Positions 9,918-64,000 of a DNA stretch of 64,000 nucleotides are shown piece after piece. Under the pieces are notes generated by a model. That model was not told the origin of the DNA and ran no database searches. It was given only the letters and a program-made list of their open reading frames with translations. Position 1 is the stretch's first letter. The number at the start of each line of letters is the position of its first letter. Source of the stretch: an uncultured Mycoplasma sp. (GTDB lineage Bacteria; Bacillota_I; Bacilli_A; RF39; UBA660); contig CAMNSE010000004.1 of NCBI GenBank assembly GCA_946554525.1, forward strand, positions 8,177 through 72,176, in the 5' to 3' direction. The position numbers were made by a program, and so were the translations under genes.

Positions 9918-9946
9918 TTGACTTCGGGGGGGGGGTATGCTATTAT
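9918..9946 (+). promoter_or_regulatory. sigma-A-type promoter with a G10 tract in the spacer (17-nt spacer)
   Basis: TTGACT (9918-9923), TC, G10 (9926-9935), TATGC, TATTAT (9941-9946). The TGC before TATTAT makes it an extended -10. The cassette is conserved at 21069 and 62782 with different G counts. Confidence 0.7.
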
Positions 9947-9974: not shown

Positions 9975-11345
9975 ATGAAGTTTGAGACATTAAGAAAAGA
10001 TAATCGTAAGAAATGGATAGTAGGAGTTATAGCAATACTGGCTATAACATCGGTAGTATTCTTTGTATCAACTAGAGCAAATTATAAAACAGAACAAAGA
10101 TTAAATTTAATAAATACGAAAGTTAATTGGAATCCAACAGATTTAGAAATAGTGTCTATTAAACTAAAAGCTGGAGATAACTATACAGATACTAATACAG
10201 TACCAACAAGTGGATATACATTAAGTGATGAATCATATTGTGAAGTAAATGGAAGTAGAGATACAAGTATTCCTATGGAGTACAAAGATGGTAAAGTGAG
10301 TATTGGAGTAAGCAACAAAGGAACGAAGTGCTATTTAATATTTAATACTAAAACTCCTGTAGCAGCCGAAATAATACTTGCTAATAAAACTGTAGAAGAA
10401 AGAACAGATTTCAGTTCAGCATTAACAGAAAATACAACTGGAAAGATATATAAAACACAAGATGATGATGGAGATACATACTATTTTGCTGGGTCTGTAG
10501 ATAATAACTGGGTACAATTTGGAGCAGAAAATGGAAGCTCAATATATTGGCGAATAATAAGAATAAATGGTGATGGAACAATAAGATTAATCTATAATGG
10601 AACAAGTATGGTACAAACAGGAACATCAACTCAAATAAATGAAACAACATATAAGTTCTCAGCTACAAATGCTACAGGAACTCCAAGTTTTACTTATGCT
10701 AAAGATAATGCCTATGTAGGATATATGCGTGGAACAGCAGGGTCAAGCACATATGATGCAACACATACAAATACAATTAGTAGTTATGCAAAGCAAATTG
10801 TAGATGAATGGTATAGTACAAATCTAAATAAGACAGGAATCAAAGAGAAGATATCAACAAATACCGGATTTTGTGGAGATAGAACAAGCAATACAAATAG
10901 TAGTGCAGAACCTAATGGAACCGGAGGATACGGAACTACAAAAACATATTACGGAGCATTTTACAGATTATATACAAATAAAGCACCAAGCTTAAGATGC
11001 ACAAATGCAAATGATTTATATACAGTAAGTAGTGCAAATAAAGGAAATAAAGCCTTAACATATCCAGTAGCTCTAATAACAGCGGATGAGGTAGCATATG
11101 CCGGAGGAACAAAGGCAAGCGGTAATAGTTTATATTATTTAAATACAAATCAATATTATTGGACAATGTCTCCTTCTACCTTTAATGGGAGTTATGCGAT
11201 CATGTTTTCTGTGCACTTGGATGGTATACTAGACTCCCGCAACGTGTACCTTGCAAGCGGCCTTCGTCCAGTTATTAACTTAAAAGCTGATACTAAACTT
11301 ATAGGAGATGGGACAACTACCAGTCCATATACTGTAGAAGTATAG
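9975..11345 (+). CDS. membrane-anchored surface protein, poly-G-promoter family member 1
   Basis: N-terminal basic stretch plus a transmembrane segment (KKWIVGVIAILAITSVVFFVS). The extracellular part shares YWRIIRINGDGTIRLIYNG, FCGDR, ITADEVAYAGG, YYWTMSPS and LRPVINLK...GDGT...PY with the gene at 62835. The C-terminal domain architecture is shared with 21125-22651. Confidence 0.8.
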   Translation: MKFETLRKDNRKKWIVGVIAILAITSVVFFVSTRANYKTEQRLNLINTKVNWNPTDLEIVSIKLKAGDNYTDTNTVPTSGYTLSDESYCEVNGSRDTSIPMEYKDGKVSIGVSNKGTKCYLIFNTKTPVAAEIILANKTVEERTDFSSALTENTTGKIYKTQDDDGDTYYFAGSVDNNWVQFGAENGSSIYWRIIRINGDGTIRLIYNGTSMVQTGTSTQINETTYKFSATNATGTPSFTYAKDNAYVGYMRGTAGSSTYDATHTNTISSYAKQIVDEWYSTNLNKTGIKEKISTNTGFCGDRTSNTNSSAEPNGTGGYGTTKTYYGAFYRLYTNKAPSLRCTNANDLYTVSSANKGNKALTYPVALITADEVAYAGGTKASGNSLYYLNTNQYYWTMSPSTFNGSYAIMFSVHLDGILDSRNVYLASGLRPVINLKADTKLIGDGTTTSPYTVEV

Positions 11346-19373: not shown

Positions 19374-21017
19374 ATGAAAAAGAACTCATTTTTAGAAGGT
19401 TCTATTATAGCAACAATATCCCTTATTGTAGTAAGACTTTTAGGGTTATTATATGTTATTCCATTTTATGCTATTGTTGGTGCAACAGGGGCAGCATTAT
19501 ATGCTTATGCTTATAATATTTATGGTTTATTTTTGGATATATCTGCATCAGGTGTTCCTAGTGCTGTTGCTAAACTAATTAATGAGTTTAATACTTTAAA
19601 TAAACAAGAGGCAAAGATAAGAACTTTTATGATTGGCAAAAAGATATTAGGCTTTTTTGCAATAGCAGCCTTTATAGTATTATTTGTATTTGCTCCTCAG
19701 ATTTCCAAATTAATTATTCATGACATGACTGGAGGAAATACGATAGGGGATGTTACATTTGTACTTCGGTCTGTATCATTTGCACTTATTTTATTTCCAT
19801 TTTTAGGAATGAATCGAGGTTTTTTTCAAGGACATAATGTTATATCTGTTGCATCATTCTCTCAAGTAATTGAACAGGCAACAAGAATATTAGTAGTAAT
19901 ATTAGGTAGTTTTTTAGTTTTAAAAGTATTTGGTATGGATCTAAAATATGCTATTGGTATTGCCGTATTTGGAGCATTCTTAGGAGAACTTATGGCAGAT
20001 ATTTATGTTCATCATAAGCTTAAGAAACATAAAGAACAATTTTATCTCGATTATGAATTTAAGAAAAAGGATAATATTACTAACAATCAAATTATTAGAA
20101 GAATAATAAAGTATGCAATTCCTATTGTTATTATTACAGTTGCTACAACTATTTATAATAATATTGATATGATTTTAGTTTTAAGAACAATGAACAATTT
20201 AGGATTTGAAGCATATATATCTGAATTTGTAGCAACAGGTATCTCGACATGGGGAGCAAAAATTAGTGTTATAGTTACAACAATTAGTATGGGAATTTCT
20301 TCAAGTTTAGGTCCTCATTTAGTAGAGAGTTTTACTTTAAAAAACTATAAAGATGTAAATCATAAGCTTAATAAAGCTATGGAAATAGTTTTATTTATTA
20401 CAATACCAATGTGTATAGGCATATCTTTATTAAGTGACTCTATATGGACAGTATTTTATGGCCATAGTAGTATTGGAACTACATTACTTGCTATGACAAT
20501 ATTTTCTCCATTATTTGGAAATATTTATTCTATTGCAAATAATACATTACAAAGTATGAATAGATTTAAAATGGTTTATTTAAGTACAATATCTGGGTTT
20601 TTATTAAATACTTTACTTGATATTCCACTTATGCATTTATTTTACCATTTTAATCTTCCTGCTTATTGGGGCGCAATGGTAGCGACATTTTTAGGTTTTA
20701 CATTATCATATACCATAACGCTAGTATATTTAAAGAAAGCTTATCATTTTAATTATAGTGATATTGGAAAAACTTTAGGAAAAATTATTATTCCATTAGT
20801 ACCTATGATATTAGTAGTAGTTTTAATTAAATGGTTAATTCCAGTTAATTATGCATCAAGGATGTTTTGCATTTTATTTATAGCTATTTCTGCTACTGTA
20901 GGAGCGGCTATTTATTTCTTTATCTCATATAAAATGGGAATAATAGATAGTATCTTTGGTAAAGATGTCTTATCAAGAATCAAAAATAAATTTATAAAAC
21001 GCAAAAAAGAAGCTTAA
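19374..21017 (+). CDS. MOP-superfamily polysaccharide/lipid II flippase (MurJ/SpoVB/YtgP-like)
   Basis: About 14 predicted transmembrane segments and 547 aa. The N-terminus FLEGSIIATISLIVVRLLGLLYVIPF is typical of the YtgP/SpoVB group. Confidence 0.7.
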   Translation: MKKNSFLEGSIIATISLIVVRLLGLLYVIPFYAIVGATGAALYAYAYNIYGLFLDISASGVPSAVAKLINEFNTLNKQEAKIRTFMIGKKILGFFAIAAFIVLFVFAPQISKLIIHDMTGGNTIGDVTFVLRSVSFALILFPFLGMNRGFFQGHNVISVASFSQVIEQATRILVVILGSFLVLKVFGMDLKYAIGIAVFGAFLGELMADIYVHHKLKKHKEQFYLDYEFKKKDNITNNQIIRRIIKYAIPIVIITVATTIYNNIDMILVLRTMNNLGFEAYISEFVATGISTWGAKISVIVTTISMGISSSLGPHLVESFTLKNYKDVNHKLNKAMEIVLFITIPMCIGISLLSDSIWTVFYGHSSIGTTLLAMTIFSPLFGNIYSIANNTLQSMNRFKMVYLSTISGFLLNTLLDIPLMHLFYHFNLPAYWGAMVATFLGFTLSYTITLVYLKKAYHFNYSDIGKTLGKIIIPLVPMILVVVLIKWLIPVNYASRMFCILFIAISATVGAAIYFFISYKMGIIDSIFGKDVLSRIKNKFIKRKKEA

Positions 21018-21068
21018 TGAACTTCTTTTTTCTATGTAAAACATCTTGTAAATGAAATGCCCAAAATA

Positions 21069-21094
21069 TTGACTTCGGGGGGGTATGCTATTAT
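21069..21094 (+). promoter_or_regulatory. poly-G promoter cassette, copy 2 (G7, 14-nt spacer)
   Basis: TTGACT (21069-21074), TC, G7 (21077-21083), TATGC, TATTAT (21089-21094). Confidence 0.65.
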
Positions 21095-21124
21095 TTACTT
21101 ATAAAATAGTAAGGAGATAATAGT

Positions 21125-22651
21125 ATGGAGAAGAAAAAGAATATAACACTATTAGTAATAGGATTACTTGCAGTAGTAGCATTCTCATTTGGAATAAGTT
21201 ATGCCTACTTTGTAAGTAGAATTACTAAAGAAGGAGAAGGAAGCAATGTAGGTGGTTCAACTGCAACAAAACAAGATACAGTAGTAAGTACTACAGGATC
21301 TATTGGATTTACCGACACCAATATCTATCCAGGACATAAGAATATATCAAAGATTGTAGTAACAGCAACAGGAGATAGTCACGTAATATATAACTTAGTA
21401 TGGAATGGGACTAATACACTAAATACAACCATAAATTATAAGGTATATAAAGCAACAACAGAAAAGAATCCAAGCATTAAATGCGCAAAACATGAAGAAG
21501 GAACAATAAGAAAAGAGTTGTATGAGGAATGTACAGAGAACTTAACTGGATTAGGAGAGGTAATTTCTGAAGGAATGATAGAATCAACTGAAGCAAGTAC
21601 AAAAGTAAAACTAATAAGGAATGAAGAGATAGATGCGAGCAACGTAGGAGCAAAAGTATATTACTATATAGTACTAGAATATCCAAATAAAGAAGATAGC
21701 CAAAACATAGATATGAATGGTTCTTTTACAGGTAATATCAATGTAGAATTATTAGAAGAGAAAGAATATTGTACAAATGATACATGTAAATATTTAATAG
21801 CAAAGAATGAAATGGTACATGAGACATTTACAAAAGAAGATGGAACAGTAGTAGATACAGGATATAGATATGAAGGAGCAAACCCAAATAATTATGTAAG
21901 ATTCAATAATGAATTATGGAGAATAATCGGAGTATTTGAAACAGTAAATGCTGATACAAATGAAACAGAGAGTTTAGTCAAACTAATAAGAAATGAATCT
22001 ATAGGAAATATTAGATGGGATACATATGGATATTATGGATCAAATGATTGGACAGAATCAGATATCAAAACAATATTAAATGGACAATACTTAAATGGAG
22101 AAGATATAAACTATAATTATAGAAATCCTAATCATGGAGATGGCAATATTAATCCGACAGTATCAATAGCAGGTGTAAGCATCAAAGATACAGCAAGAGA
22201 AATGATTGAAAATGCAAAATGGAATATAGGAGGAGCTTCAAGTTCTTCTTCAATTGTATCAGCATTTTATATTGAAGAAAGAGGAACAACTGGAGCTAAA
22301 TCAAATCCAACCATAGCGACATGGAATGGATATATAGGGCTTATGTATCCAAGCGATTATGGATACGCAGTAGATAGCACATCATGTCCAAGAACAGCTT
22401 CGCTATGGAAATATTCCTATACTGGTTCGTGTAAAACAAATAACTGGCTATTAAATAATAACAATCAATGGATGTTAACGCCAAGTGCAGATGGTGAAAG
22501 TTCACAATATTATGTAAGCTATGACTATAACATTAATTCGCTTTATCCCGGATTAGAAAATAGCATTCGCCCAACTATATATCTGAAATCTAATGTGCAA
22601 ATAGTTGATGGAGATGGTTCACAAGAACATCCATATGAATTAACTATTTAA
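21125..22651 (+). CDS. secreted/anchored surface protein, poly-G-promoter family member 2
   Basis: AAGGAGA RBS. The N-terminal signal/anchor ends in GISYAYF. The C-terminal domain (NYVRFNNELWRIIGVF..., WTESDIKTILNGQYL, QWMLTPS, IRPTIYLK...GDGS..HPY) is homologous in layout to members 1 and 3. Confidence 0.8.
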   Translation: MEKKKNITLLVIGLLAVVAFSFGISYAYFVSRITKEGEGSNVGGSTATKQDTVVSTTGSIGFTDTNIYPGHKNISKIVVTATGDSHVIYNLVWNGTNTLNTTINYKVYKATTEKNPSIKCAKHEEGTIRKELYEECTENLTGLGEVISEGMIESTEASTKVKLIRNEEIDASNVGAKVYYYIVLEYPNKEDSQNIDMNGSFTGNINVELLEEKEYCTNDTCKYLIAKNEMVHETFTKEDGTVVDTGYRYEGANPNNYVRFNNELWRIIGVFETVNADTNETESLVKLIRNESIGNIRWDTYGYYGSNDWTESDIKTILNGQYLNGEDINYNYRNPNHGDGNINPTVSIAGVSIKDTAREMIENAKWNIGGASSSSSIVSAFYIEERGTTGAKSNPTIATWNGYIGLMYPSDYGYAVDSTSCPRTASLWKYSYTGSCKTNNWLLNNNNQWMLTPSADGESSQYYVSYDYNINSLYPGLENSIRPTIYLKSNVQIVDGDGSQEHPYELTI

Positions 22652-22728
22652 TAATTTTTTATTAAATCATAAAAATATGAGTAGAATTATACTCATATTT
22701 TTTGTATAATGAATATAGGGTGACTTAT

Positions 22729-38766: not shown

Positions 38767-38794
38767 TTTTTATTTTATAAATATGGGGGGTAAT

Positions 38795-39262
38795 ATGATA
38801 AACAAATTAGGGATTTTAAATAAAGGCCGTTTTGAGCAAATTGAAAATACATTAATTGAAACTAAAATTTCTCTACTAGATTATGAGTTTACTTTGGGAG
38901 AATCAGAATATAACTTTGATTTTTTAATAAAACTGCATGATTATTTGTTTGGAGATATTTATATATTACAAAATCATGGTTTACGAAATTTTATTGATGA
39001 TGAAGTTAAAAATAGGATAAATGCATTATTAAATAGATTAACTATAAAAGGAGTTTATGGGGTATTTGATGAAGAATCGCTAGATATATTTTATAAGTTA
39101 TGGCAAATACAGATATTTACTGATGGAAATGCTAGAACTTTAATAGGATTCTTGAAAATTTACGCATCTGCATTTCAGTTAGAAAAATATATTGATTTTA
39201 AAGAATTTTATTTTTTATGGAATCAAGGTTTTAGTTTTAAAAGAGTTAGAATAAAGAAGTAA
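38795..39262 (+). CDS. Fic/DOC-family-like protein with a degenerate active-site motif
   Basis: Has QIFTDGNARTLIGFL where Fic enzymes have HPFx[DE]GN[GK]R. The start is ambiguous: ATG 38783 sits just before a G6 run, and ATG 38795 is in frame. Confidence 0.5.
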   Translation: MINKLGILNKGRFEQIENTLIETKISLLDYEFTLGESEYNFDFLIKLHDYLFGDIYILQNHGLRNFIDDEVKNRINALLNRLTIKGVYGVFDEESLDIFYKLWQIQIFTDGNARTLIGFLKIYASAFQLEKYIDFKEFYFLWNQGFSFKRVRIKK

Positions 39263-53354: not shown

Positions 53355-54272
53355 ATGAAAGAAGAATACTACAATGAGATAGAACACTATATAAAAAAAT
53401 ATGAAGTAAGTAAAAGAGCGAGAGTAATATCAGATAATTATGAACAGTTAGAGACAAATTGGAATATAGGAAGGCTTTTAGTTGAAGCACAAGGAGGAAG
53501 TAGGCGTGCAAAATATGGAAATGGGCTTATAAAAGAGTGGAGTAAGAAATATACTGAAAATTATGGTAAAGGTTATACATATAGTAATTTAAGTAGATTT
53601 AGACAATTTTATCTGTATTTTCCAATACTTGCGACAGTGTCGCAAGTATCTTGGTCTATTATAGTAGAATTATTATCTATAAAAGATACAAACAAGAGAA
53701 ACTATTATATTAACTTATGTATTGAAAATAATCTGTCGGTAAGAGAACTAAGAAATCAAATAAAATCAGGTTCATATGAAAGATTAATAAATAAACCAGA
53801 ACATATAGAAATTATACAGCAAAAAAATAATTTATTAATCATAGATAATATAAAAAATCCAATTATATTAGAAGTATGTAAGAATGAAGAAGTAAAAAAT
53901 GAGAACAATCTACAGATGTTAATACTTTCAAAATTAAAAAATTTTTTTGAGCAATTAGGCAGTGGATATACACTTGTTGGCAGTGAATATAAAATAAGTT
54001 GTAATGGTAAGAATTATTATATAGATATATTGCTTTTCAATTATAAAGTAAATGTATTTGTAGTCGTAGAATTAAAACTGCGAGAGTTAAAAGTAGAAGA
54101 CAAAGTTCAAATACAAAAATATATGTATTTAGTTGATAACTATGTAAAAGAAACATTTCACAATAAAACAATAGGAATAATAATTGCTAAAGAGCAAGAT
54201 AATTTCATTATGAATTTTATTAGAGAAGAAAATATTATTCCTATTACTTATCAACTATTAAAAAATGAATAA
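53355..54272 (+). CDS. YhcG/DUF1016-family PD-(D/E)xK nuclease-like protein
   Basis: The N-terminal helical domain (NWNIGRLLVEAQGG...YG..LIKEWSKKY) fits the family. The C-terminal core has YIDILLF...VVELK (D...ExK). Confidence 0.6.
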   Translation: MKEEYYNEIEHYIKKYEVSKRARVISDNYEQLETNWNIGRLLVEAQGGSRRAKYGNGLIKEWSKKYTENYGKGYTYSNLSRFRQFYLYFPILATVSQVSWSIIVELLSIKDTNKRNYYINLCIENNLSVRELRNQIKSGSYERLINKPEHIEIIQQKNNLLIIDNIKNPIILEVCKNEEVKNENNLQMLILSKLKNFFEQLGSGYTLVGSEYKISCNGKNYYIDILLFNYKVNVFVVVELKLRELKVEDKVQIQKYMYLVDNYVKETFHNKTIGIIIAKEQDNFIMNFIREENIIPITYQLLKNE

Positions 54273-54336: not shown

Positions 54337-57231
54337 ATGTATGTACCATTAAAAATTATGACTGAATATTCATTACTTAAGAGTACTATTAAGATTGATA
54401 CATTGGTAAGTTTTTTACAAAAACATAATATCACTAGCTGTGCTATTTGTGATACAAATTTATATGGTGTAATGGAGTTTTATACAAAGCTAACAGCCAA
54501 TAATATAAAGCCTATTATTGGTTTAGAAGTAATAATAGATGGTTGTCCACTCTATTTATATGCCCAGAATAATTTAGGATATCGTAATTTACTTAAAATA
54601 AATACATATATGGAAATGAAAACAATTTCACATGCAGAAATAAAAAAATATTTAGAGCATATTAAGATTGTTTTACCATATATATCATATTCATTATTAG
54701 ATATATATCCTAGTGCTTATTTGGGATACAAAAATGATACTGAGAAAATAGAAGCTAATTTAAAATCTAATAAAAATGTATATATAAGAGAAGTTAGATG
54801 TTTAGATAAAGATGATACAAAATATTTAAGAGTACTAGAAGCAATAGACAAAGGTGTAAATTTAGATGAAATAATTTCTAATTATGATTGTAATTATTTT
54901 GCCATAAATATTTCAGAAGAAGATAAATTAAGTACTATAGAATTTACTCGTGATATAAATGTTACTATATCAAAAAGTGAAAATCATATTCCAATATATA
55001 ATAGTGGAGTGAATTCTTTTGAATACTTAAAAAAACTAGCCTATAGAGGATTAGAAAAAAGATTAGATGGTAAGATTATTAAAGAATATCAAGAAAGATT
55101 AGATTATGAGTTAAGCGTAATTAAAAAAATGGGGTTTGTAGACTATTTTTTGATTGTTTATGATTATGTGTTTTATGCTAAAAAAAATAATATTTTAGTA
55201 GGTCCAGGAAGAGGAAGTGCAGCGGGATCTTTAGTAAGTTATTGTATTGGAATAACTGATGTTGATCCAATACAATATCATTTACTATTTGAAAGGTTTT
55301 TAAACCCTGAAAGAATTACGATGCCTGATATTGATATAGACTTTGAATACACTAAAAGAGGTCAAATTATTGATTATGTAAGAAATAAATATGGTCAAAT
55401 GAATGTTGCTCCAATTATGACTTTTGGTACGCTTAGTGCTAAGCAAGTAATTCGGGATGTTGCGCGAGTTTTAGATATTGATATCTCTTTAGTTGACCGA
55501 TTGTCTAGTGTCCTTGATGCTAAATTAAATTTAAAAGAGAATATGAAAAGTCCAAATGTCATGAAAATGATTAATGAAAATCCTATTTTAAAAGATGCTA
55601 TAAGTACATCTTTAAAATTAGAAGGATTAAAAAGACATATTTCAACTCATGCAGCTGGTGTAGTTATCTCAAGCATTCCTCTTGATGATGTAATTCCTGT
55701 ATGTTTTAATAGTGATATTTTAATGACTGGGGTTACTATGGAGTATTTAGAGAGTTTAGGGCTTCTTAAAATGGATTTTTTAGCTCTTCGAAACTTAACA
55801 ATAATAAGTAATGTTCTTGATTTAGTAAATAGTGCTACTGGTAAAAAAATAGAACTATCTAAAATTTCATTAAATGATTCTGAAATATTTAACTTATTTG
55901 CAAGTGGAGATACCGAAGGAATTTTTCAATATGAAAGCAGTGGAATGCGCAATTTGATGCTTAAATTAAAGCCATCTAGTTTTTCTGATTTAATTGCTGC
56001 AGTCGCATTATTTAGACCAGGACCTATACATAATATTGACATGTTTATTAGAAGAAAATATAAAAAAGAGAAAATTGATTATTTGCATCCTGATTTAGAA
56101 CCTATTTTAAAAGAAACTTATGGAGTAATTGTATACCAAGAACAAGTCATGCAAATATTAGTTAAAATTGGTGGATATACTTATGCCCAAGCTGATAACA
56201 TAAGAAGAGCTATGTCTAAGAAAAAAGAAAGCATTATGTTAGAAGACAAGAACCATTTTATTATAGAAGCTAAAAAACGAGGATATCATGAAAATATTGC
56301 TAAAGAAATATATGATTTGATTTTAAAATTTGCTAATTATGGATTTAATAAAGCTCATTCTGTTTCATATGCCTTAATTGGTTATAGGATGGCCTATTTA
56401 AAAGTTCATGCTCCTATGTATTTCATTGCCAATTTACTTAACATGAGTATTGGTAGTGAAATTAAAACTAAAGAATACATTGATGAAGCTAGAAAAAAGG
56501 AAATTATAATTTTAAAACCGGATATTAATATAAGTGATGCTACTTATAGAATAAAAGATAATACTTTAATGTTACCGCTTAGTAGTATTAAAAATTTAGG
56601 ATCTCAAGCAAGTAGCTCAATTTTAGAAGAAAGAGAAAAAAATGGAGTATATTCTAGTTATTTAGATTTTGTATCTCGTGTTTATGGAAAAAGTGTAAAT
56701 AAAAAGACTATTAGTTCTTTAATTGAAGCTGGAGTTTTAGATTCTTTTAATCTAAGTAAAAAGACAATGATAGAAAATTTAGATATTGCTATTAATTATG
56801 CGGAGCTAATTAGCAATTTAGACAAAAATTTTGTAATGGAGCCAAACATTCAAGAATACCCAGAATATGAAGAAGATACGTTAAGAGGATTTGAAATGTC
56901 TTCTTATGGATTCTATGTTAATAGTCATCCAGTTAGTAAATATCAAGATAAAACTATTGTTAAAAATGAAAATATTAAAAATTATTTTAATAAGCGAATT
57001 AAAAGTGTAGTTTTAGTTGAAAAGATAAAATCTTTAAAAACAAAAAAAGGAGATTCTATGGCATTTCTAACCGGTTCTGATGAAACTGGGAATGTAGAAT
57101 TTGTTATTTTTCCAAGTTGCTATAATAGCCTTGCAAATATCAAAAAGAATGATATAATAACAATAAATGGTAAAGTAACTAAACGATTTGATAGTTATCA
57201 AGTTAGTGTAGATTTTTTAAATAAAATATAG
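54337..57231 (+). CDS. dnaE: DNA polymerase III alpha subunit, DnaE type
   Basis: Has GPGRGSAAGSLVSYCIGITDVDP, PDIDIDF, GLLKMDFLALRNLT, YGFNKAHS and a C-terminal OB fold. The N-terminal PHP motif is degenerate (see findings). Confidence 0.93.
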   Translation: MYVPLKIMTEYSLLKSTIKIDTLVSFLQKHNITSCAICDTNLYGVMEFYTKLTANNIKPIIGLEVIIDGCPLYLYAQNNLGYRNLLKINTYMEMKTISHAEIKKYLEHIKIVLPYISYSLLDIYPSAYLGYKNDTEKIEANLKSNKNVYIREVRCLDKDDTKYLRVLEAIDKGVNLDEIISNYDCNYFAINISEEDKLSTIEFTRDINVTISKSENHIPIYNSGVNSFEYLKKLAYRGLEKRLDGKIIKEYQERLDYELSVIKKMGFVDYFLIVYDYVFYAKKNNILVGPGRGSAAGSLVSYCIGITDVDPIQYHLLFERFLNPERITMPDIDIDFEYTKRGQIIDYVRNKYGQMNVAPIMTFGTLSAKQVIRDVARVLDIDISLVDRLSSVLDAKLNLKENMKSPNVMKMINENPILKDAISTSLKLEGLKRHISTHAAGVVISSIPLDDVIPVCFNSDILMTGVTMEYLESLGLLKMDFLALRNLTIISNVLDLVNSATGKKIELSKISLNDSEIFNLFASGDTEGIFQYESSGMRNLMLKLKPSSFSDLIAAVALFRPGPIHNIDMFIRRKYKKEKIDYLHPDLEPILKETYGVIVYQEQVMQILVKIGGYTYAQADNIRRAMSKKKESIMLEDKNHFIIEAKKRGYHENIAKEIYDLILKFANYGFNKAHSVSYALIGYRMAYLKVHAPMYFIANLLNMSIGSEIKTKEYIDEARKKEIIILKPDINISDATYRIKDNTLMLPLSSIKNLGSQASSSILEEREKNGVYSSYLDFVSRVYGKSVNKKTISSLIEAGVLDSFNLSKKTMIENLDIAINYAELISNLDKNFVMEPNIQEYPEYEEDTLRGFEMSSYGFYVNSHPVSKYQDKTIVKNENIKNYFNKRIKSVVLVEKIKSLKTKKGDSMAFLTGSDETGNVEFVIFPSCYNSLANIKKNDIITINGKVTKRFDSYQVSVDFLNKI

Positions 57232-57245
57232 AAGGAAGTGACATC

Positions 57246-60200
57246 ATGCATGATATAAATTCATTTTTAGAAAGTATTGGAGTAACTGATGAGACTCATG
57301 CATTTAAGGATATCTTAATAGATAAAGTGAAATTAAATAAAAAGACCCAAAACTTTTCTGTTTATTTAGTTAGTAAGAATGTTTTACCTATTAAAGATGC
57401 TAATATTTTGCTTAATAAAAAGTATAAAATTCATGATAACTATCCTTGTGAAATCTATTTGAACTATGAAAATATAAAAGATGATGATGTAAAAATTTAT
57501 GTAAGAGAAATTATGAATGAGCTGGTTTTAGATAAGCCATCATTAGTTAGTTTACTTGATAATGAAGCAATTATTGATGATGATATTATAATTTTTGAAG
57601 TAATTAGTGAAACGGAAGAAGAGATTATTAAAAAAGAACAAGCTAATATTTTATCTTCTTTAGAAAAATATGGTTTTCATGGATATTTTATAACAACTAG
57701 AATGAATGAAGAAAAAAGAAAAGAAGTTGTAAGTGAATTAGAAAGTGCTCAAGCTCCTGTAGAGTATAAAGAGCAAATTCAAGAATTTATTCCTGGAAGT
57801 GTTATTAAAGGAAAAGCTATAACTAAAGAAGCTTCTCCTATTGGAAGTATTACTTCTGTTAGTAAATCAGTAACAATTGAAGGATATATTGAATCTATTT
57901 CTTATTTAGAAAGAGATAATATTAATATTATTACACTATCTATTAATGATAACGATAAAAGCATTATGGCTAAAATTTTTGAAAAAGAAAAAGAAAAATA
58001 TTTACTAATTAAGAATGCTCTAAAAGTTGATTCATGGTATCGCTTAAATGGAAGTGTTGATTTAGATTCCTATTCTAAATGTCTTGCATTATCTGTTAGG
58101 AATTTAGAAGATATTGAAGATAGGGAAATAATTATTAGTACGAGTGAAGACCCTAATATTGTATTAGGAGAACATGTGGATGGAGAAGTTTGTAGAATTG
58201 ATAATATTGTAGGAGCTAAGGAAAATGTTATTATTGAAGCTTTTGTTTTTGGAATGGATTTATTAGAAAAGGATACTATTAATATTATGACTTTGAAGGT
58301 TAGTGATAAAACAAGTAGTATACTTGCAAAAGTTTTCAAAAAAAACAAAAGAGAATTTGAGGCAATAAAAAAAGGTTTAAAAAGCGCTGTAAAGAAAAAA
58401 GAATGGTATCGCTTTCATGGTAATATTGAATTTGATAATTATTCTCATGAATTAGTATTTCAAATAAGAAATTTAGAACATATTCCTAGTAAAGATGAAA
58501 AAGTGGTAGATGATGCACTAGTTAAAAGAGTGGAACTTCATGCTCATACTATGATGAGTATGATGGATGGTTTAATTCCTAATGATGAAAAAGATCCACG
58601 TAACCTATGTCAATTTGCTTATGATTTCGGACATAAAGCTATAGCTGTTACAGATCACAATGTTCTTCAGGCTTATCCAAATATGTTTCATGCCGTAAAT
58701 AGTTTAAATAAAGGCAAAAATCCGGAAGAACATTTTAAAATGATTTACGGAACAGAACTTAATGTGGTAAATGATGATATTGATTTTATTCACAATTTAA
58801 GAGAATATGAGCTTTTAAATGGCGAGTATATTGTATTTGATACAGAAACAACTGGTCTTTATCTTGGAAGTGACCAAATGATTGAAATTGGTGCTGTAAA
58901 AATTAAAGATAAACAAGTAATTGATCGTTTTGATGAATTTATTGATCCTCATCGTCCACTTCCAGAAAAAATAAAAACTTTGACCTGTATTACAGATGAA
59001 ATGCTTGCTGGCCATGATGATGAGAAAAGTGTTACTAAACGTTTCTTAGATTGGGTAGGAGATCTACCTATGGTTGCGCATAATGCGAAGTTTGATATTG
59101 GATTTATTAATGCAGCTTGTGAAAAATATAATTTAGGAGAGTTTAATAATACAGTGTTAGATACAATGAGTATGGCAAGATTTTTACATCCAGAATGGCC
59201 TAATCATAAACTAACAACACTTGCTAGGCGTTATAAAATTGAATGGGATGAAGAAGCACACCATAGAGCAGATTATGATGCAGAAGGGACAGCTTATGCA
59301 TTTATTAAAATGTGTGAAGAATTGGATAGTCAAAACATTGAAACAACTACAAAACTAGTAAATTCTGTAGATATTAATGAACTTGTTAAGTTCTCATTTC
59401 CTTTTCATTTATGTTGTTTAGTAAAAAATAAAACAGGACTTAAGAATTTATTTAAAATTATTTCTTATGCAAATACGACTTATTTATTTAAAAACAGTGA
59501 GCCAAAGCTTCCTAGAGGAGAACTAAAGAAATATCGTGAAGGGCTTCTTATAGGCTCTGGGTGTGTAAATGGTGAAATATTTGAAGAAGCAAAAACGAAA
59601 GATGATGAAGAACTTGCTAATTTAATGAACTTTTATGATTATATAGAAGTTCAGCCACTTAGTGCAATTAAACATTTATTACAACTAGAATCTAGTGGGT
59701 TTAAAACAATGAATGAACTAGAAGAACATATAAAGAAGATTATTCGTGTTGCGCGTGATGCAGGTAAAATTGTAGTAGCTACAAGTGATGCTCATTATTT
59801 AAGACCAGAAGATAAAATCTATCGTGATATAATAATTGGTCAAAAATCCAATGGAAAATTGCATCCTTTAAATAAAAGAGGTGTAGATCAACCAGATATG
59901 CATATTCGTACAACTAAGGAAATGTTAGATGAATTTGCATTCTTAGGCAGTGATCTTGCTTATGAAATTGTTGTAACTAATTCTAATAAAATTGCTGATA
60001 TGATTGAAGAAGTCGAAGTAATTATTCAAACAGGAGGAGTTCCTTTTTCACCTAAAATTGATAAGTCAGTTGAAACAGTAACTAATCTTGTATATACAAA
60101 AGCTAAAGATTGGTATGGGGATCCACTTCCATTTAATATTGAAGAGAGAATTTCAAAAGAATTATATGGAGATGCGGTATTAGAAAGTATTCGTACTAAA

Positions 60201-62279
60201 CTATCTCGCGAAGAAAAGCTAGAAGGCGATACTCTTAATAAAAAATCTTTTGCAATTCTTCATGAAACAATATTAAATGGATTTGATGCTGTAAAAGAAA
60301 TTATTAAAGAAGAACTTGAAATTAAACTTAAAGAAGATCATGAGAATAGTATTAAAGAAATAGAAAATAAACTAAAAGAAGCTTCTTTAGAAGAAAAGAA
60401 AGAATTAGAAGAAAATCTAAAAGTATTAAAAGATACAGATCCTCTTAGTGATATTGAAAAAAAGATTAAGAAATCTTTAGGTGGTATTATTGGAGGAGGA
60501 TTTGATGTAATTTATTTAATTGCACAAAAATTAGTTAAGAAAAGTAATGATGATGGCTTTCTAGTAGGATCCCGTGGTTCTGTTGGATCAAGTTTTGTTG
60601 CAACTATGATGGGTATTACTGAGGTTAATTCACTCCCTCCACATTATCGTTGCAAAAAATGTAAATGTAGTATTTTTGAAGATGAAAATGGTAATGCTTT
60701 AGGAGCAACTTATAAAAGTGGATTTGATCTTCCAGATAAGATGTGTCCAAATTGTAATATTGCTATGGTAAAAGATGGACAAGATATGCCATTTGCAACC
60801 TTCCTTGGATTTAATGCAGATAAAGTACCAGATATAGACCTTAATTTCTCAGATTTAAATCAAGCTGCAGCACATGATTATACGAAAGTATTATTTGGTA
60901 TAGATAATGTATATAGAGCGGGAACTATCGGTACAGTAGCTGAAAAAACTGCTTTTGGTTTTGTAAGAGGTTATGCAGAACAAAAGGGTATAATTATGAG
61001 TAATGCTGAGGTAGAGAGGCTTGCTATGGGATGTACAGGAGTTAAACGTACAACAGGTCAGCATCCAGGGGGAATAGTTGTTATTCCAGGATATATGGAT
61101 GTATTTGATTTTACACCTTTCCAATATCCAGCAGAAGATATTGATGCTGCATGGAGAACAACGCATTTTGATTATCATGCAATTGATGAAGATGTCTTAA
61201 AGCTAGATATTCTAGGACATACAGATCCTACACAGCTAAGAATGATTCAAGATATATCCGGAATAGATGTTACAACCGTTCCGTTAGATGATAAAGATAC
61301 AATGGGCATATTTTTATCACCAGAACCTCTTGGGGTTACAAAAGACCAAATTATGAACGAAACTGGTACTCTTGGAGTTCCTGAGTTTGGAACACCATTT
61401 ACCATTGGAATGCTAACCGATACTAAGCCTAAAACATTTGCCGAATTAATTAAAATATCAGGTCTTTCTCATGGTACTGATGTTTGGCTTGGAAATGCTC
61501 AAGAATTAATTAAGAATAATGTAGTTCCATTTAGTGATGTTATTGGTTGTCGTGATGATATCATGGTTTACTTAATGTATAAAGGCCTAAAACCAATTAA
61601 GGCATTTAAAATTATGGAATTTGTTCGTAAAGGAAAAGCATCAAAAGAGCCTGAAGCTTGGGCAGAACATAAAAAAACAATGGAAGAAGCAGGAATAGAG
61701 TCGTGGTTTATAGAGTCATGTGGTAAAATTAAGTACATGTTTCCTAAAGCCCATGCTGCAGCTTATGTAATGAGTGCATTTAGAATTGCTTATTTTAAAG
61801 TCCATTATCCAGAGATTTATTATGCAACATATTTTTCAACAAGATTTGATGATTTCGATTTAGAAACGATGGTAAAGGGATATGACGCTATTCGATCTCG
61901 TATGAATGAAATTATTGAAAAAGGCTATGATGCTACTAATAAAGAAGCGAGTGTACTTGAAACACTAAAACTTGCTTTAGAAGCTACAGCTAGAGGATAT
62001 AAGTTTGGTAATATTGATATTGAGAAGAGTGATAGTAAAAACTTTATTATTGCAGATGATAAAAAAACGCTTATCTGTCCATTTAGAACACTTGATGGAC
62101 TAGGAGATAGTGTTGCTACTAAAATTATTGAAGAGCGAAATATAAAACCATTTTATAGTATAGAAGACTTCCAAAATAGAGGAAGAGTAAATGCTACAAC
62201 AGTAGATAAATTAAGAGCACTTGGAGTATTTGGGGATTTACCAGAAACTAGTCAGTTAAGTTTATTTGACTTTGTTTAG
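57246..62279 (+). CDS. polC: DNA polymerase III PolC type (1677 aa, expanded)
   Basis: PHP VELHAHTMMSMMDG, exonuclease YIVFDTETTGL...HNAKFDIGF...HRADYDA, and SRGSVGSSFVATMMGITEVNSLPPHY with CxxC...CxxC. Also PDIDLNF and the KAHAAAYV finger region. Confidence 0.97.
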   Translation: MHDINSFLESIGVTDETHAFKDILIDKVKLNKKTQNFSVYLVSKNVLPIKDANILLNKKYKIHDNYPCEIYLNYENIKDDDVKIYVREIMNELVLDKPSLVSLLDNEAIIDDDIIIFEVISETEEEIIKKEQANILSSLEKYGFHGYFITTRMNEEKRKEVVSELESAQAPVEYKEQIQEFIPGSVIKGKAITKEASPIGSITSVSKSVTIEGYIESISYLERDNINIITLSINDNDKSIMAKIFEKEKEKYLLIKNALKVDSWYRLNGSVDLDSYSKCLALSVRNLEDIEDREIIISTSEDPNIVLGEHVDGEVCRIDNIVGAKENVIIEAFVFGMDLLEKDTINIMTLKVSDKTSSILAKVFKKNKREFEAIKKGLKSAVKKKEWYRFHGNIEFDNYSHELVFQIRNLEHIPSKDEKVVDDALVKRVELHAHTMMSMMDGLIPNDEKDPRNLCQFAYDFGHKAIAVTDHNVLQAYPNMFHAVNSLNKGKNPEEHFKMIYGTELNVVNDDIDFIHNLREYELLNGEYIVFDTETTGLYLGSDQMIEIGAVKIKDKQVIDRFDEFIDPHRPLPEKIKTLTCITDEMLAGHDDEKSVTKRFLDWVGDLPMVAHNAKFDIGFINAACEKYNLGEFNNTVLDTMSMARFLHPEWPNHKLTTLARRYKIEWDEEAHHRADYDAEGTAYAFIKMCEELDSQNIETTTKLVNSVDINELVKFSFPFHLCCLVKNKTGLKNLFKIISYANTTYLFKNSEPKLPRGELKKYREGLLIGSGCVNGEIFEEAKTKDDEELANLMNFYDYIEVQPLSAIKHLLQLESSGFKTMNELEEHIKKIIRVARDAGKIVVATSDAHYLRPEDKIYRDIIIGQKSNGKLHPLNKRGVDQPDMHIRTTKEMLDEFAFLGSDLAYEIVVTNSNKIADMIEEVEVIIQTGGVPFSPKIDKSVETVTNLVYTKAKDWYGDPLPFNIEERISKELYGDAVLESIRTKLSREEKLEGDTLNKKSFAILHETILNGFDAVKEIIKEELEIKLKEDHENSIKEIENKLKEASLEEKKELEENLKVLKDTDPLSDIEKKIKKSLGGIIGGGFDVIYLIAQKLVKKSNDDGFLVGSRGSVGSSFVATMMGITEVNSLPPHYRCKKCKCSIFEDENGNALGATYKSGFDLPDKMCPNCNIAMVKDGQDMPFATFLGFNADKVPDIDLNFSDLNQAAAHDYTKVLFGIDNVYRAGTIGTVAEKTAFGFVRGYAEQKGIIMSNAEVERLAMGCTGVKRTTGQHPGGIVVIPGYMDVFDFTPFQYPAEDIDAAWRTTHFDYHAIDEDVLKLDILGHTDPTQLRMIQDISGIDVTTVPLDDKDTMGIFLSPEPLGVTKDQIMNETGTLGVPEFGTPFTIGMLTDTKPKTFAELIKISGLSHGTDVWLGNAQELIKNNVVPFSDVIGCRDDIMVYLMYKGLKPIKAFKIMEFVRKGKASKEPEAWAEHKKTMEEAGIESWFIESCGKIKYMFPKAHAAAYVMSAFRIAYFKVHYPEIYYATYFSTRFDDFDLETMVKGYDAIRSRMNEIIEKGYDATNKEASVLETLKLALEATARGYKFGNIDIEKSDSKNFIIADDKKTLICPFRTLDGLGDSVATKIIEERNIKPFYSIEDFQNRGRVNATTVDKLRALGVFGDLPETSQLSLFDFV

Positions 62280-62284
62280 GATAA

Positions 62285-62755
62285 ATGATGGAAATAGAAA
62301 GAAAGTTTAAAGTAAATTATCTACCAGATTTATCTAATTATCCATTTTATGAGATAACTCAAATGTATTTAAGCTATGATTTAGATATTCGAATTCGTAA
62401 GAAAGGCAACAAATATTTTATAACAAAGAAAAGTAATGATACTATAAAAAGATATGAAGAAGAAGTAGAAATAGACTATCAAACATTTGATATTTTAAGT
62501 ACTTTAAGCGTAGGTAATATAATATCTAAAACAAGATACTTAATTCCTATAGATAATAGCTTAACTGCTGAAGTAGATATCTACCATGGTGTTTTGGAAG
62601 GACTAGTAACAGTAGAAGTGGAATTTTCTTCTTTAGAAGAAGCAAATAGTTTTATAGCTCCTTTATGGTTTGGCGAAGAAATAACTGAAAATATGCAATA
62701 TAAAAATAAAGAGTTAGCTAAATTAAATAATTTAACTCAAATAAGAAAGCTTTAA
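62285..62755 (+). CDS. CYTH-domain protein (triphosphate tunnel metalloenzyme family)
   Basis: The N-terminal EIERKF signature and a size of about 155 aa. Confidence 0.7.
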   Translation: MMEIERKFKVNYLPDLSNYPFYEITQMYLSYDLDIRIRKKGNKYFITKKSNDTIKRYEEEVEIDYQTFDILSTLSVGNIISKTRYLIPIDNSLTAEVDIYHGVLEGLVTVEVEFSSLEEANSFIAPLWFGEEITENMQYKNKELAKLNNLTQIRKL

Positions 62756-62781: not shown

Positions 62782-62809
62782 TTGACTCCGGGGGGGGGTA
62801 TGCTATTAT
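62782..62809 (+). promoter_or_regulatory. poly-G promoter cassette, copy 3 (G9, 16-nt spacer)
   Basis: TTGACT (62782-62787), CC, G9 (62790-62798), TATGC, TATTAT (62804-62809). Confidence 0.65.
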
Positions 62810-62834
62810 AAATATAAGAATAGAGAGTGATAGT

Positions 62835-64000
62835 ATGGAGTTCGAAACAATAAAAAAAGATAACCGTAAGAAATATGTTATTGGAGTTATAGTAATACTT
62901 GCTGTATCTTCAGTAGTGTTCTTTGTATCAACTAGAGCAAATTATAAAGATGAACAACGATTAAATTTAATAAATACGAGAGTTAATTATAGTCCAAGTG
63001 ACTTAGATGTAATGGCTATAAAGGTGCAAAATTCAAGTGGAGGATATGATACGGTAGATACAGTGCCAACTAGCGGATACACACTAAATAGCGAATCATA
63101 TTGTGAAGTAAATGGAAGCAAAGATGCAAGTATACCAATAGAATACAAAGATGGAAGAGTTACGATACCAGTAGAATCTAAAGGCACAAAATGTTATTTA
63201 TTTTTTGATGAAAAACCTATATCAATAGCTGATATTTTAGATGGATTAACCAAAGAAAAAAGAACCGATTTTAGTTCAGTATTAACGAAAAATACAACTG
63301 GAAAAATATATACTGCTGAAGATGATGATGGTACAAGTTATTATTATGCTGGGGCAGTAGATAATAACTGGGTACAATTTGGAACAGAAAATGGAAGTCC
63401 AATATATTGGAGAATAATAAGAATAAATGGCGATGGAACAATAAGATTAATTTATAATGGAACAAGTATGGTCCAAACAGGAACATCAACTCAGATAAAT
63501 GGAACAGCATATACGTTCTCGCATAAAGATGCAGTATCAGTGGAAACCTATGCTAATGATAATGCATATGTGGGATATATGTATGGAACAGCAGATTCTA
63601 GTACATATGAAGCAACCCATACGAATACAAATAGTAGTTATGTAAAACAAATGGTAGATGAATGGTATAATACAAATCTAAATAAAACTGGCATAAAAGA
63701 GAAGATATCAACGAATGCTGGCTTTTGTGGAGATAGAAGCTTACAAAGTGGAACAGGAGTAGGAACAACTCAAACTTATTATAAAGCTTATAATAGGCTA
63801 TCTACAAATAAAGTCCCAAGCTTAAAATGTACAAATGAAAATGACTTATATACAGTAAGTAGTGCAAATAAAGGAAATAAAGCATTAACATATCCAGTAG
63901 GATTAATAACAGCAGATGAAGTAGCATATGCTGGAGGAATAATTACATATAATACTAATTATTCATATTATTTATATACAAACGAATATTATTGGACAAT
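62835..64000 (+). CDS. membrane-anchored surface protein, poly-G-promoter family member 3 (3' end outside the window)
   Basis: Absent from the ORF track because it has no stop in the window. Translation from ATG 62835 gives MEFETIKKDNRKKYVIGVIVILAVSSVVFFVSTRANYKDEQRLNLINTRVNYSPSDL... It stays open to 64000 and is colinear with 9975-11345, with long identical nucleotide stretches such as GGAACAAGTATGGT.CAAACAGGAACATCAACTCA. Confidence 0.85.
   Translation, partial: MEFETIKKDNRKKYVIGVIVILAVSSVVFFVSTRANYKDEQRLNLINTRVNYSPSDLDVMAIKVQNSSGGYDTVDTVPTSGYTLNSESYCEVNGSKDASIPIEYKDGRVTIPVESKGTKCYLFFDEKPISIADILDGLTKEKRTDFSSVLTKNTTGKIYTAEDDDGTSYYYAGAVDNNWVQFGTENGSPIYWRIIRINGDGTIRLIYNGTSMVQTGTSTQINGTAYTFSHKDAVSVETYANDNAYVGYMYGTADSSTYEATHTNTNSSYVKQMVDEWYNTNLNKTGIKEKISTNAGFCGDRSLQSGTGVGTTQTYYKAYNRLSTNKVPSLKCTNENDLYTVSSANKGNKALTYPVGLITADEVAYAGGIITYNTNYSYYLYTNEYYWT

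Follow-up and report, generated by a model that had tools for sequence, protein, structure and literature searches.

Gene context and anatomy of the cassettes

The window, by which we mean the whole 64,000-nt stretch of DNA analysed here, ends within a gene preceded by a predicted promoter that holds a run of nine G's in its spacer; dnaE, polC and a small CYTH-domain gene lie upstream of this cassette (Table 1). The CYTH gene is called as 155 aa from position 62288 in other assemblies, and the exact protein is found on 13 contigs. The sequence-only reading had described a weak hairpin after this gene; a hairpin is present (-12.4 kcal/mol, z = -3.59, none of 200 shuffles being as good) and is likely to be a terminator that insulates the cassette from read-through. 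Since the CYTH stop codon is itself embedded in the hairpin, the cassette would begin a new transcription unit. Further upstream, polC (57246-62279) directly follows a DnaE-type polymerase gene (54337-57231), and its product, at 1677 aa, exceeds the 1445 positions of the NCBIfam PolC model by about 230 aa.

Table 1. Positions in the window of the copy 3 cassette, its neighbours and the two other cassettes.
Feature	Position	Strand	Basis or remark
CYTH-domain gene, 156 aa	62285-62755	+	Pfam PF01928, E 1.1e-5; anchor for orthologous loci
A/U-rich 14-bp hairpin overlapping CYTH stop codon	62739-62770	+	RNA fold
Copy 3, predicted -35 hexamer TTGACT	62782-62787	+	5/6 of TTGACA; identical in copies 1 and 2
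Copy 3, CC junction, -35 to tract	62788-62789	+	
Copy 3, G9 homopolymer in predicted promoter spacer	62790-62798	+	Variable element; G7/G8/G9 across samples
Copy 3, TATGC, predicted -16 TRTG extended -10 element plus one base	62799-62803	+	Sequence; scan flags TG before second hexamer
Copy 3, predicted -10 hexamer TATTAT	62804-62809	+	5/6 of TATAAT
Copy 3, GAGAG, putative weak Shine-Dalgarno-like site	62823-62827	+	From sequence; ATG 7 nt downstream
Copy 3 gene, ATG start codon	62835-62837	+	
Copy 3 gene, 5' 388 codons, cut by window end	62835-64000	+	Full product P0001, 445 aa
Copy 1 cassette TTGACT-TC-G10-TATGC-TATTAT	9918-9946	+	17-nt spacer; precedes gene 9975-11345
Copy 1 parts	TTGACT 9918-9923; TC; G10 9926-9935; TATGC; TATTAT 9941-9946	+	
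Copy 2 cassette TTGACT-TC-G7-TATGC-TATTAT	21069-21094	+	14-nt spacer; precedes gene 21125-22651
Copy 2 parts	TTGACT 21069-21074; TC; G7 21077-21083; TATGC; TATTAT 21089-21094	+	

Each element that the sequence-only reading had assigned to copy 3 was found where it had been placed, and the 16-nt spacer is indeed one nucleotide short of that of copy 1. The region reads ...gcaaaaaatatTGACTccGGGGGGGGGtatgcTATTATaaatataagaatagagagtgatagtATG; it scores 10/12 in a consensus scan, with a TG upstream of the -10, and lies in an intergenic gap, the -10 being 25 nt from the ATG. Alignment of the three copies yields an invariant core, ATTGACT[T/C]C-Gn-TATGCTATTAT, which is 8 + n + 11 nt long and stands at each of the three loci before a gene for a protein predicted to be anchored at its N-terminus; beyond this core the copies are only loosely similar, each having an A-rich upstream stretch and a short leader. 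The 12-mer GTATGCTATTAT occurs exactly three times in the window, each time directly 3' of a G tract.

The -16 TRTG motif is an established element of Gram-positive sigma-A promoters, and the TATGC conserved between tract and -10 appears to be an extended -10 element of this kind. All parts of the sigma-A extended -10 layout (TTGACA-like hexamer, TRTG, TATAAT-like hexamer, spacer of 17 +/- 1 nt) can be recognized in the promoter predicted from the sequence, so the cassette can be read as a putative -35, a mutable spacer and an extended -10. Transcription would start near 62816 and produce a short leader of about 18 nt; this leader folds to 0 kcal/mol and is unstructured.

One feature distinguishes copy 3, namely the CC in place of TC between -35 and tract. 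The difference, to which the sequence-only reading had drawn attention, is real, but its use as a sign that the flank also evolves proved trivial: CC is present in 11 of 11 other assemblies of the locus, and the change is fixed, setting the locus apart from its paralogues.

Rarity of the G tracts

The GC content of the window is 28%, and G being a rare base in this genome, the tracts are conspicuous. A census of the 64 kb found only three runs of at least seven G's, all inside the cassettes, and no run of at least six C's. For G8 or longer, 0.06 occurrences are expected from dinucleotide shuffles and two loci were found; chance is ruled out as the explanation of the tracts. Pairs of -35 and -10 hexamers on their own are not significant in such AT-rich DNA (12 in the window, 15.4 expected), and the significance of the cassette comes from its three-fold conservation, its position and its tract, not from the hexamer pair.

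The sole other run of at least six G's in the window, a G6 at 38785-90, lies directly after a tRNA-Arg gene; its context (38783-38797, ATGGGGGGTAATATG) forms codons 1-3 of an ORF at 38783-39262 or else a Shine-Dalgarno sequence for an ATG at 38795. An Rfam search of the window returned two tRNAs and nothing else. Two other roles for the tracts were considered and rejected: a G-quadruplex, which a single G run cannot form, and, at copy 1, control of the divergent gene, the tract there being about 80 nt upstream of the start and outside any plausible spacer.

Products of the genes behind the cassettes

The copy 3 ORF is 100% identical over its 388 aa to P0001, a 445-aa protein encoded on an 87-kb NCBI/ENA contig. 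Its product is 70% identical over 399 aa to that of the copy 1 gene, which bears out the close paralogy proposed from the sequence. Only about 60 C-terminal residues of the copy 2 product (508 aa) are shared with the other two; a 616-aa protein of a sister species, however, combines an N-terminal half resembling copy 2 with a C-terminal part resembling copy 1, and all three products therefore belong to one modular superfamily. This family is very large, with more than 7,400 matches, mostly from gut metagenomes.

No Pfam or NCBIfam family matched the three products above threshold. With PF19789 (DUF6273; gathering threshold 23.5 bits) the copy 1 protein scored 16.2 bits and P0001 gave no match; weak matches (E <=0.01, the best 2.1e-5) were seen in 26 of 47 homologues, so that P0001 would be a distant relative of DUF6273 at best. 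In the AlphaFold model of P0001 (pLDDT 76) a helix near the N-terminus (residues 12-33) precedes a beta-rich body, and a Foldseek search of the PDB returned one marginal match, 9qa6, the IgA peptidase of Thomasclavelia ramosa (E 1.6e-3, probability 0.93, TM-score 0.24). The N-terminal domain of that peptidase is annotated as DUF6273, an extracellular domain of gut Firmicutes (PMC12402451). DUF6273 proteins thus provide the best structural match to the predicted ectodomain of P0001, which itself has no peptidase domain. As modelled, the copy 3 product is most likely an anchored extracellular protein and may be exposed at the surface.

Tract lengths differ between samples

Flanking housekeeping proteins served as exact-match anchors for recovering orthologous contigs from Logan assemblies of other SRA runs. 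Identical proteins were present in the assemblies of at least 18 runs belonging to several accession series; the tract lengths given below are those of consensus assemblies, not of reads. At copy 3, contigs that read through the tract have G7 (SRR27999955 and SRR30517270) or G8 (SRR12338511), against G9 in the window. At copy 2, where the window has G7, four contigs from four runs in three accession series have G9, and a fifth (L005) has a G9-A variant; at copy 1, where the window has G10, two contigs have G9. At all three loci the flanks are identical while tract lengths differ between samples, so that at the level of assemblies the tracts vary between populations within conserved surroundings. 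From the three lengths found in one genome, the sequence-only reading had argued for an unstable tract rather than a fixed structural element, and had named an invariant tract as the result that would speak against it; we looked for invariance in the assemblies of other SRA runs and did not find it, and the case for instability stands.

The contrast with the rest of the sequence is sharp. Over 49,323 nt aligned between the window and 17 near-identical Logan contigs there are 2 substitutions, and indels are confined to the tracts: each of the ten contigs spanning a tract disagrees with the window on its length, whereas 69 A/T runs of at least seven were crossed with zero indels. The tracts are by far the most mutable positions in a near-clonal organism. 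In two further contigs, differences are confined to localised recombined patches far from the cassette. Sharply bounded divergent patches in an otherwise identical strain were seen within the 3' part of polC (61106-61750 versus L015, about 15% divergence) and at 53438-54250 (versus L001, about 18%); they indicate homologous recombination with a related lineage against the near-clonal background.

Many contigs end inside a tract: 8 of the 11 at copy 3, seven of them after exactly eight G's and one after seven, and one of the three at copy 1, after nine G's. When tract lengths coexist in one sample, contigs built on a k = 31 de Bruijn graph end in the tract. To judge from their sequences, the three copies have no 31-mer that could be shared at these lengths, and paralogy is therefore not the cause of the breaks. 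The breaks fit several tract lengths within one sample, which are likely, but PCR or sequencing stutter could give the same breaks.

Contigs also stop at two points inside the genes. Three of them (L005, L006 and L008) all end at 21185, a point that lies 60 nt inside the copy 2 gene; the window contains no repeat there, and these stops suggest allelic diversity or a further paralogue outside it. Eight end at about 11041, in the 3' part of the copy 1 gene, close to a 38-nt block (11016-11053) common to the copy 1 and copy 3 genes, and this paralogue repeat accounts at least roughly for these stops. A look-up with the YceD protein added no tract data, all of its contigs stopping inside the copy 1 gene near the same block. 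Exact-protein look-ups with the 156-aa CYTH call, P0001, P0010 and the copy 2 protein returned no match, and the exact copy 2 protein has no record in any other sample.

Relatives and similar cassettes elsewhere

The FtsZ relatives of the organism are MAGs labelled 'Bacilli/Firmicutes bacterium', and an assignment to the segmented filamentous bacteria is therefore not supported. In the sister species (FtsZ 93-94% identical) the syntenic region contains no G tract. Nor do they have the copy 2 gene between the genes for a SpoVB-like protein and cysteine desulfurase: these are 55 bp apart in the sister species (L103 15050-15105; window counterpart 21017-22702), and by this comparison the copy 2 gene with its cassette is an insertion relative to them. 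Family genes of the sister species have promoters of the form TTGACT-N17(AT-rich)-TATAAT (L103 at 3969, L108 at 3298). Their 17-nt spacers suggest that 17 nt, equivalent to G10, is the native optimum, and the comparison suggests that the G tract replaced an ordinary spacer. A G7 run is also found in L108 (6159-6165; likewise in L109-L111); it lies inside the reading frame for a 540-aa multi-pass membrane protein adjoining a family gene, is invariant in the four contigs, all of one project, and is a possible site of translational slippage.

Among 51 full-length distant homologues, none has a G or C run of at least six within 120 nt upstream, and we reject the poly-G promoter as a trait of the protein family. 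Scanning 185,579 species genomes, a representative set that does not contain this species, for the cassette pattern gave three matches, all in unrelated MAGs; with so few, the cassette is not a widespread element. The three gut MAGs (L002 7253-7279, L003 3423-3447 and L004 86-113, labelled Alphaproteobacteria, Clostridia and Bacilli, respectively) share the design TTGACT-Gn-TATGCTAT, with tracts of G11, G9 and G9 and spacers of 18, 16 and 19 nt; the genes behind them encode an ankyrin-repeat protein, a BspA-like LRR lipoprotein and a TM protein. They are possibly independent inventions of the same switch. The lack of a tract in the sister species and the homologues, taken with the rarity of the cassette, points to a recent, lineage-specific acquisition.

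Homologues from human-gut metagenomes (L023-L102) were surveyed over the 90 nt before each gene start, and conserved classes of upstream region were seen. In one (for example L027, L031, L033, L036-L039, L041 and L043) an inverted repeat, TTTTGACAAGTTTTGATAACnTTTGTCGAA, is followed by a conserved 50-nt leader; in another (for example L023, L030, L040, L050, L066, L095 and L098) a hairpin, AAATGAAGTAnAACTTCA, lies just before the ribosome-binding site. Such elements may regulate the same family in other ways. More than one copy of the gene is found on several of the homologue contigs, with five loci on OLVR01000011.1.

A candidate phase-variable promoter

The explanation that we favour, and consider probable, is that each cassette is a phase-variable sigma-A promoter in which slippage changes the spacer and so switches or grades transcription of a surface-protein gene, the effect on transcription being argued by analogy. 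The mutable G tract would occupy most of the spacer between a near-consensus -35 and an extended -10. Slipped-strand mispairing during replication would add or remove single G's, and the tract would set the distance between the two hexamers at 14 nt for G7, 15 for G8, 16 for G9 and 17 for G10. A change of distance would alter the grip of RNA polymerase on both elements, so that downstream transcription would be switched or graded in a stochastic and reversible manner, and the existence of three cassettes would allow each family member to switch independently. By the same analogy G10 would probably be fully ON, G9 partly ON and G7-G8 OFF; in the window genome this would make copy 1, with 17 nt, ON and copy 2, with 14 nt, OFF, while copy 3 with its 16 nt would be either reduced or ON. 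Most other samples have spacers of 16 nt at copies 1 and 2 and of 14-16 nt at copy 3. The observed lengths, from 7 to 10, are thus mostly below the presumed optimum, which counts against this explanation. It is from known systems that we infer that the promoter is active, which length is ON, that switching can be reversed and what benefit it brings, namely surface variation in the face of antibody or phage.

The extended -10 bears on how strongly length would act. Promoters with this element can depend less on the -35, and changes of length might tune expression rather than switch it. Carried further, the argument would have a hypermutable tract with a mild rheostat effect on expression or none, the TRTG-extended -10 carrying the promoter while tract length drifts neutrally. 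All three copies do have the extended -10, and lengths cluster between 7 and 10, with G9 (16 nt) the commonest at copies 1 and 2, a distribution that could reflect mutational equilibrium. Yet tracts of G7-G10 are extremely improbable at 28% GC and have nevertheless been kept at three loci, in spacer position; the sister species manage with ordinary AT-rich spacers; surface proteins are the predicted targets, which is also the case in known phase-variable systems; and a spacer of 14 nt is far beyond the functional range of -35-dependent promoters. We regard neutral or mildly graded drift as unlikely.

Less probable still, and in our view improbable, is that the length differences are artefacts of sequencing or assembly and that the spacer at each locus in truth has a single, fixed length. 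Illumina instruments are prone to errors at poly-G, and library PCR stutters at long homopolymers; stutter at G8-G10 could explain some of the breaks that end 8 of 11 copy 3 contigs in the tract and some calls that differ by +/-1, the G9-A variant in L005 is odd, and the disagreement of all ten crossing contigs with the window could mean that the assembler of the window miscalled its tracts. The Logan contigs, however, differ among themselves (G7 and G8 at copy 3), and their lengths are reproducible across independent projects, copy 2 being G9 in four runs from three accession series and two unrelated runs agreeing on G7 for copy 3. Stutter would not give differences as large as the 2 nt reached here; a single assembly has 10, 7 and 9 G's at its three loci despite the same sequence context; and no A/T run among the 69 shows an indel.

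Least probable of all is the idea of the G tract as a site for binding or a structural element (a rigid G/C tract or an operator), the gene being under trans-acting control, its length being incidental: the conserved upstream inverted repeats and hairpins of homologous genes in relatives, with their neighbouring HTH regulators, do indicate that the family is regulated by other means elsewhere, but here the tract has neither an inverted repeat nor a second motif beside it, and a defined operator would not tolerate the variation in length seen between populations.

We thus retain the phase-variable promoter as the best account. As to its origin, we put at about even the chances that the ordinary 17-nt spacers in the promoters of several genes for DUF6273-like surface proteins were recently turned into G tracts, creating a small, lineage-specific phasome in a near-clonal gut Firmicute.

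Significance and comparison with known systems

Phase variation by repeats in promoters is textbook knowledge for Neisseria, Haemophilus, Treponema and Mycoplasma; to our knowledge few cases have been documented in uncultured gut commensals of the Firmicutes, and a literature search found no earlier description for this lineage. The proposed mechanism is a classical one, and the novelty lies in its host, which is an uncultured commensal of the gut Firmicutes, in the DUF6273-like target family, and in the visibility of the states in public metagenomes. Because the switch state of the three loci can be scored from existing metagenomes, it becomes testable without culture which of their surface proteins gut commensals vary, and at what times. 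The analysis also draws attention to a very large DUF6273-like family of more than 7,000 relatives, whose members are probably surface proteins exposed to fluctuating selection. Tracts of this kind break metagenome assemblies and may hide similar switches in MAG collections. If the spacer conversion proposed above took place, this would be among the first SSR-promoter phase-variation systems documented in an uncultured commensal Firmicute, phasome states would differ between hosts or samples and be readable directly from public metagenomes, and DUF6273-like proteins would be indicated as targets of host antibody or phage pressure.

The arrangement found at all three loci, with a tract inside the spacer of a predicted promoter, is that of the porA, tp0126 and vlp class. 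In Neisseria meningitidis porA, a surface-protein gene, a poly-G tract lies between -35 and -10 and slippage changes their spacing (PMC7864442, in the passage citing van der Ende 1995); the poly-G of Treponema pallidum tp0126 has the same location (PMC7864442, in the passage citing Giacani 2015), and as summarised there expression is best near a 17-nt spacer. So far as these passages describe them, both resemble the present cassettes in having a G homopolymer in the spacer and a surface-protein target, which is predicted here. Their hosts are Gram-negative and spirochaete pathogens, whereas ours is an uncultured low-GC gut Firmicute (PolC-type, 28% GC); the present promoters differ, too, in their predicted Gram-positive TRTG extended -10 and DUF6273-like anchored target. 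T. pallidum also has gene-family members, tprE/G/J and tprL, with poly-G promoter tracts of 7-11 G's, which modulate transcription and are variable from strain to strain as well as inside a strain (PMC7864442). In this they are like the genes described here, but their tracts lie outside the spacer, that of tprL overlapping the -10, and do not change spacing, whereas ours sit squarely within it.

The hosts of two mycoplasma systems belong, like our organism, to a low-GC, Firmicute-related lineage. Each vlp promoter of Mycoplasma hyorhinis has a poly-A tract (PMC10502178, in the passage citing Citti and Wise 1995), and Vmm of M. mycoides has TA repeats in its promoter spacer (PMC10502178, in the passage citing Persson 2002). 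The tract in our cassettes is of G, not of A or TA; compared with the vlp genes, moreover, the genes lie scattered across more than 50 kb and do not form a cluster, and their predicted products are not lipoproteins. The likeness to vlp, as far as that passage portrays it, lies in the principle: paralogous genes for surface proteins, each with a mutable promoter tract of its own, would switch independently and generate combinatorial variation.
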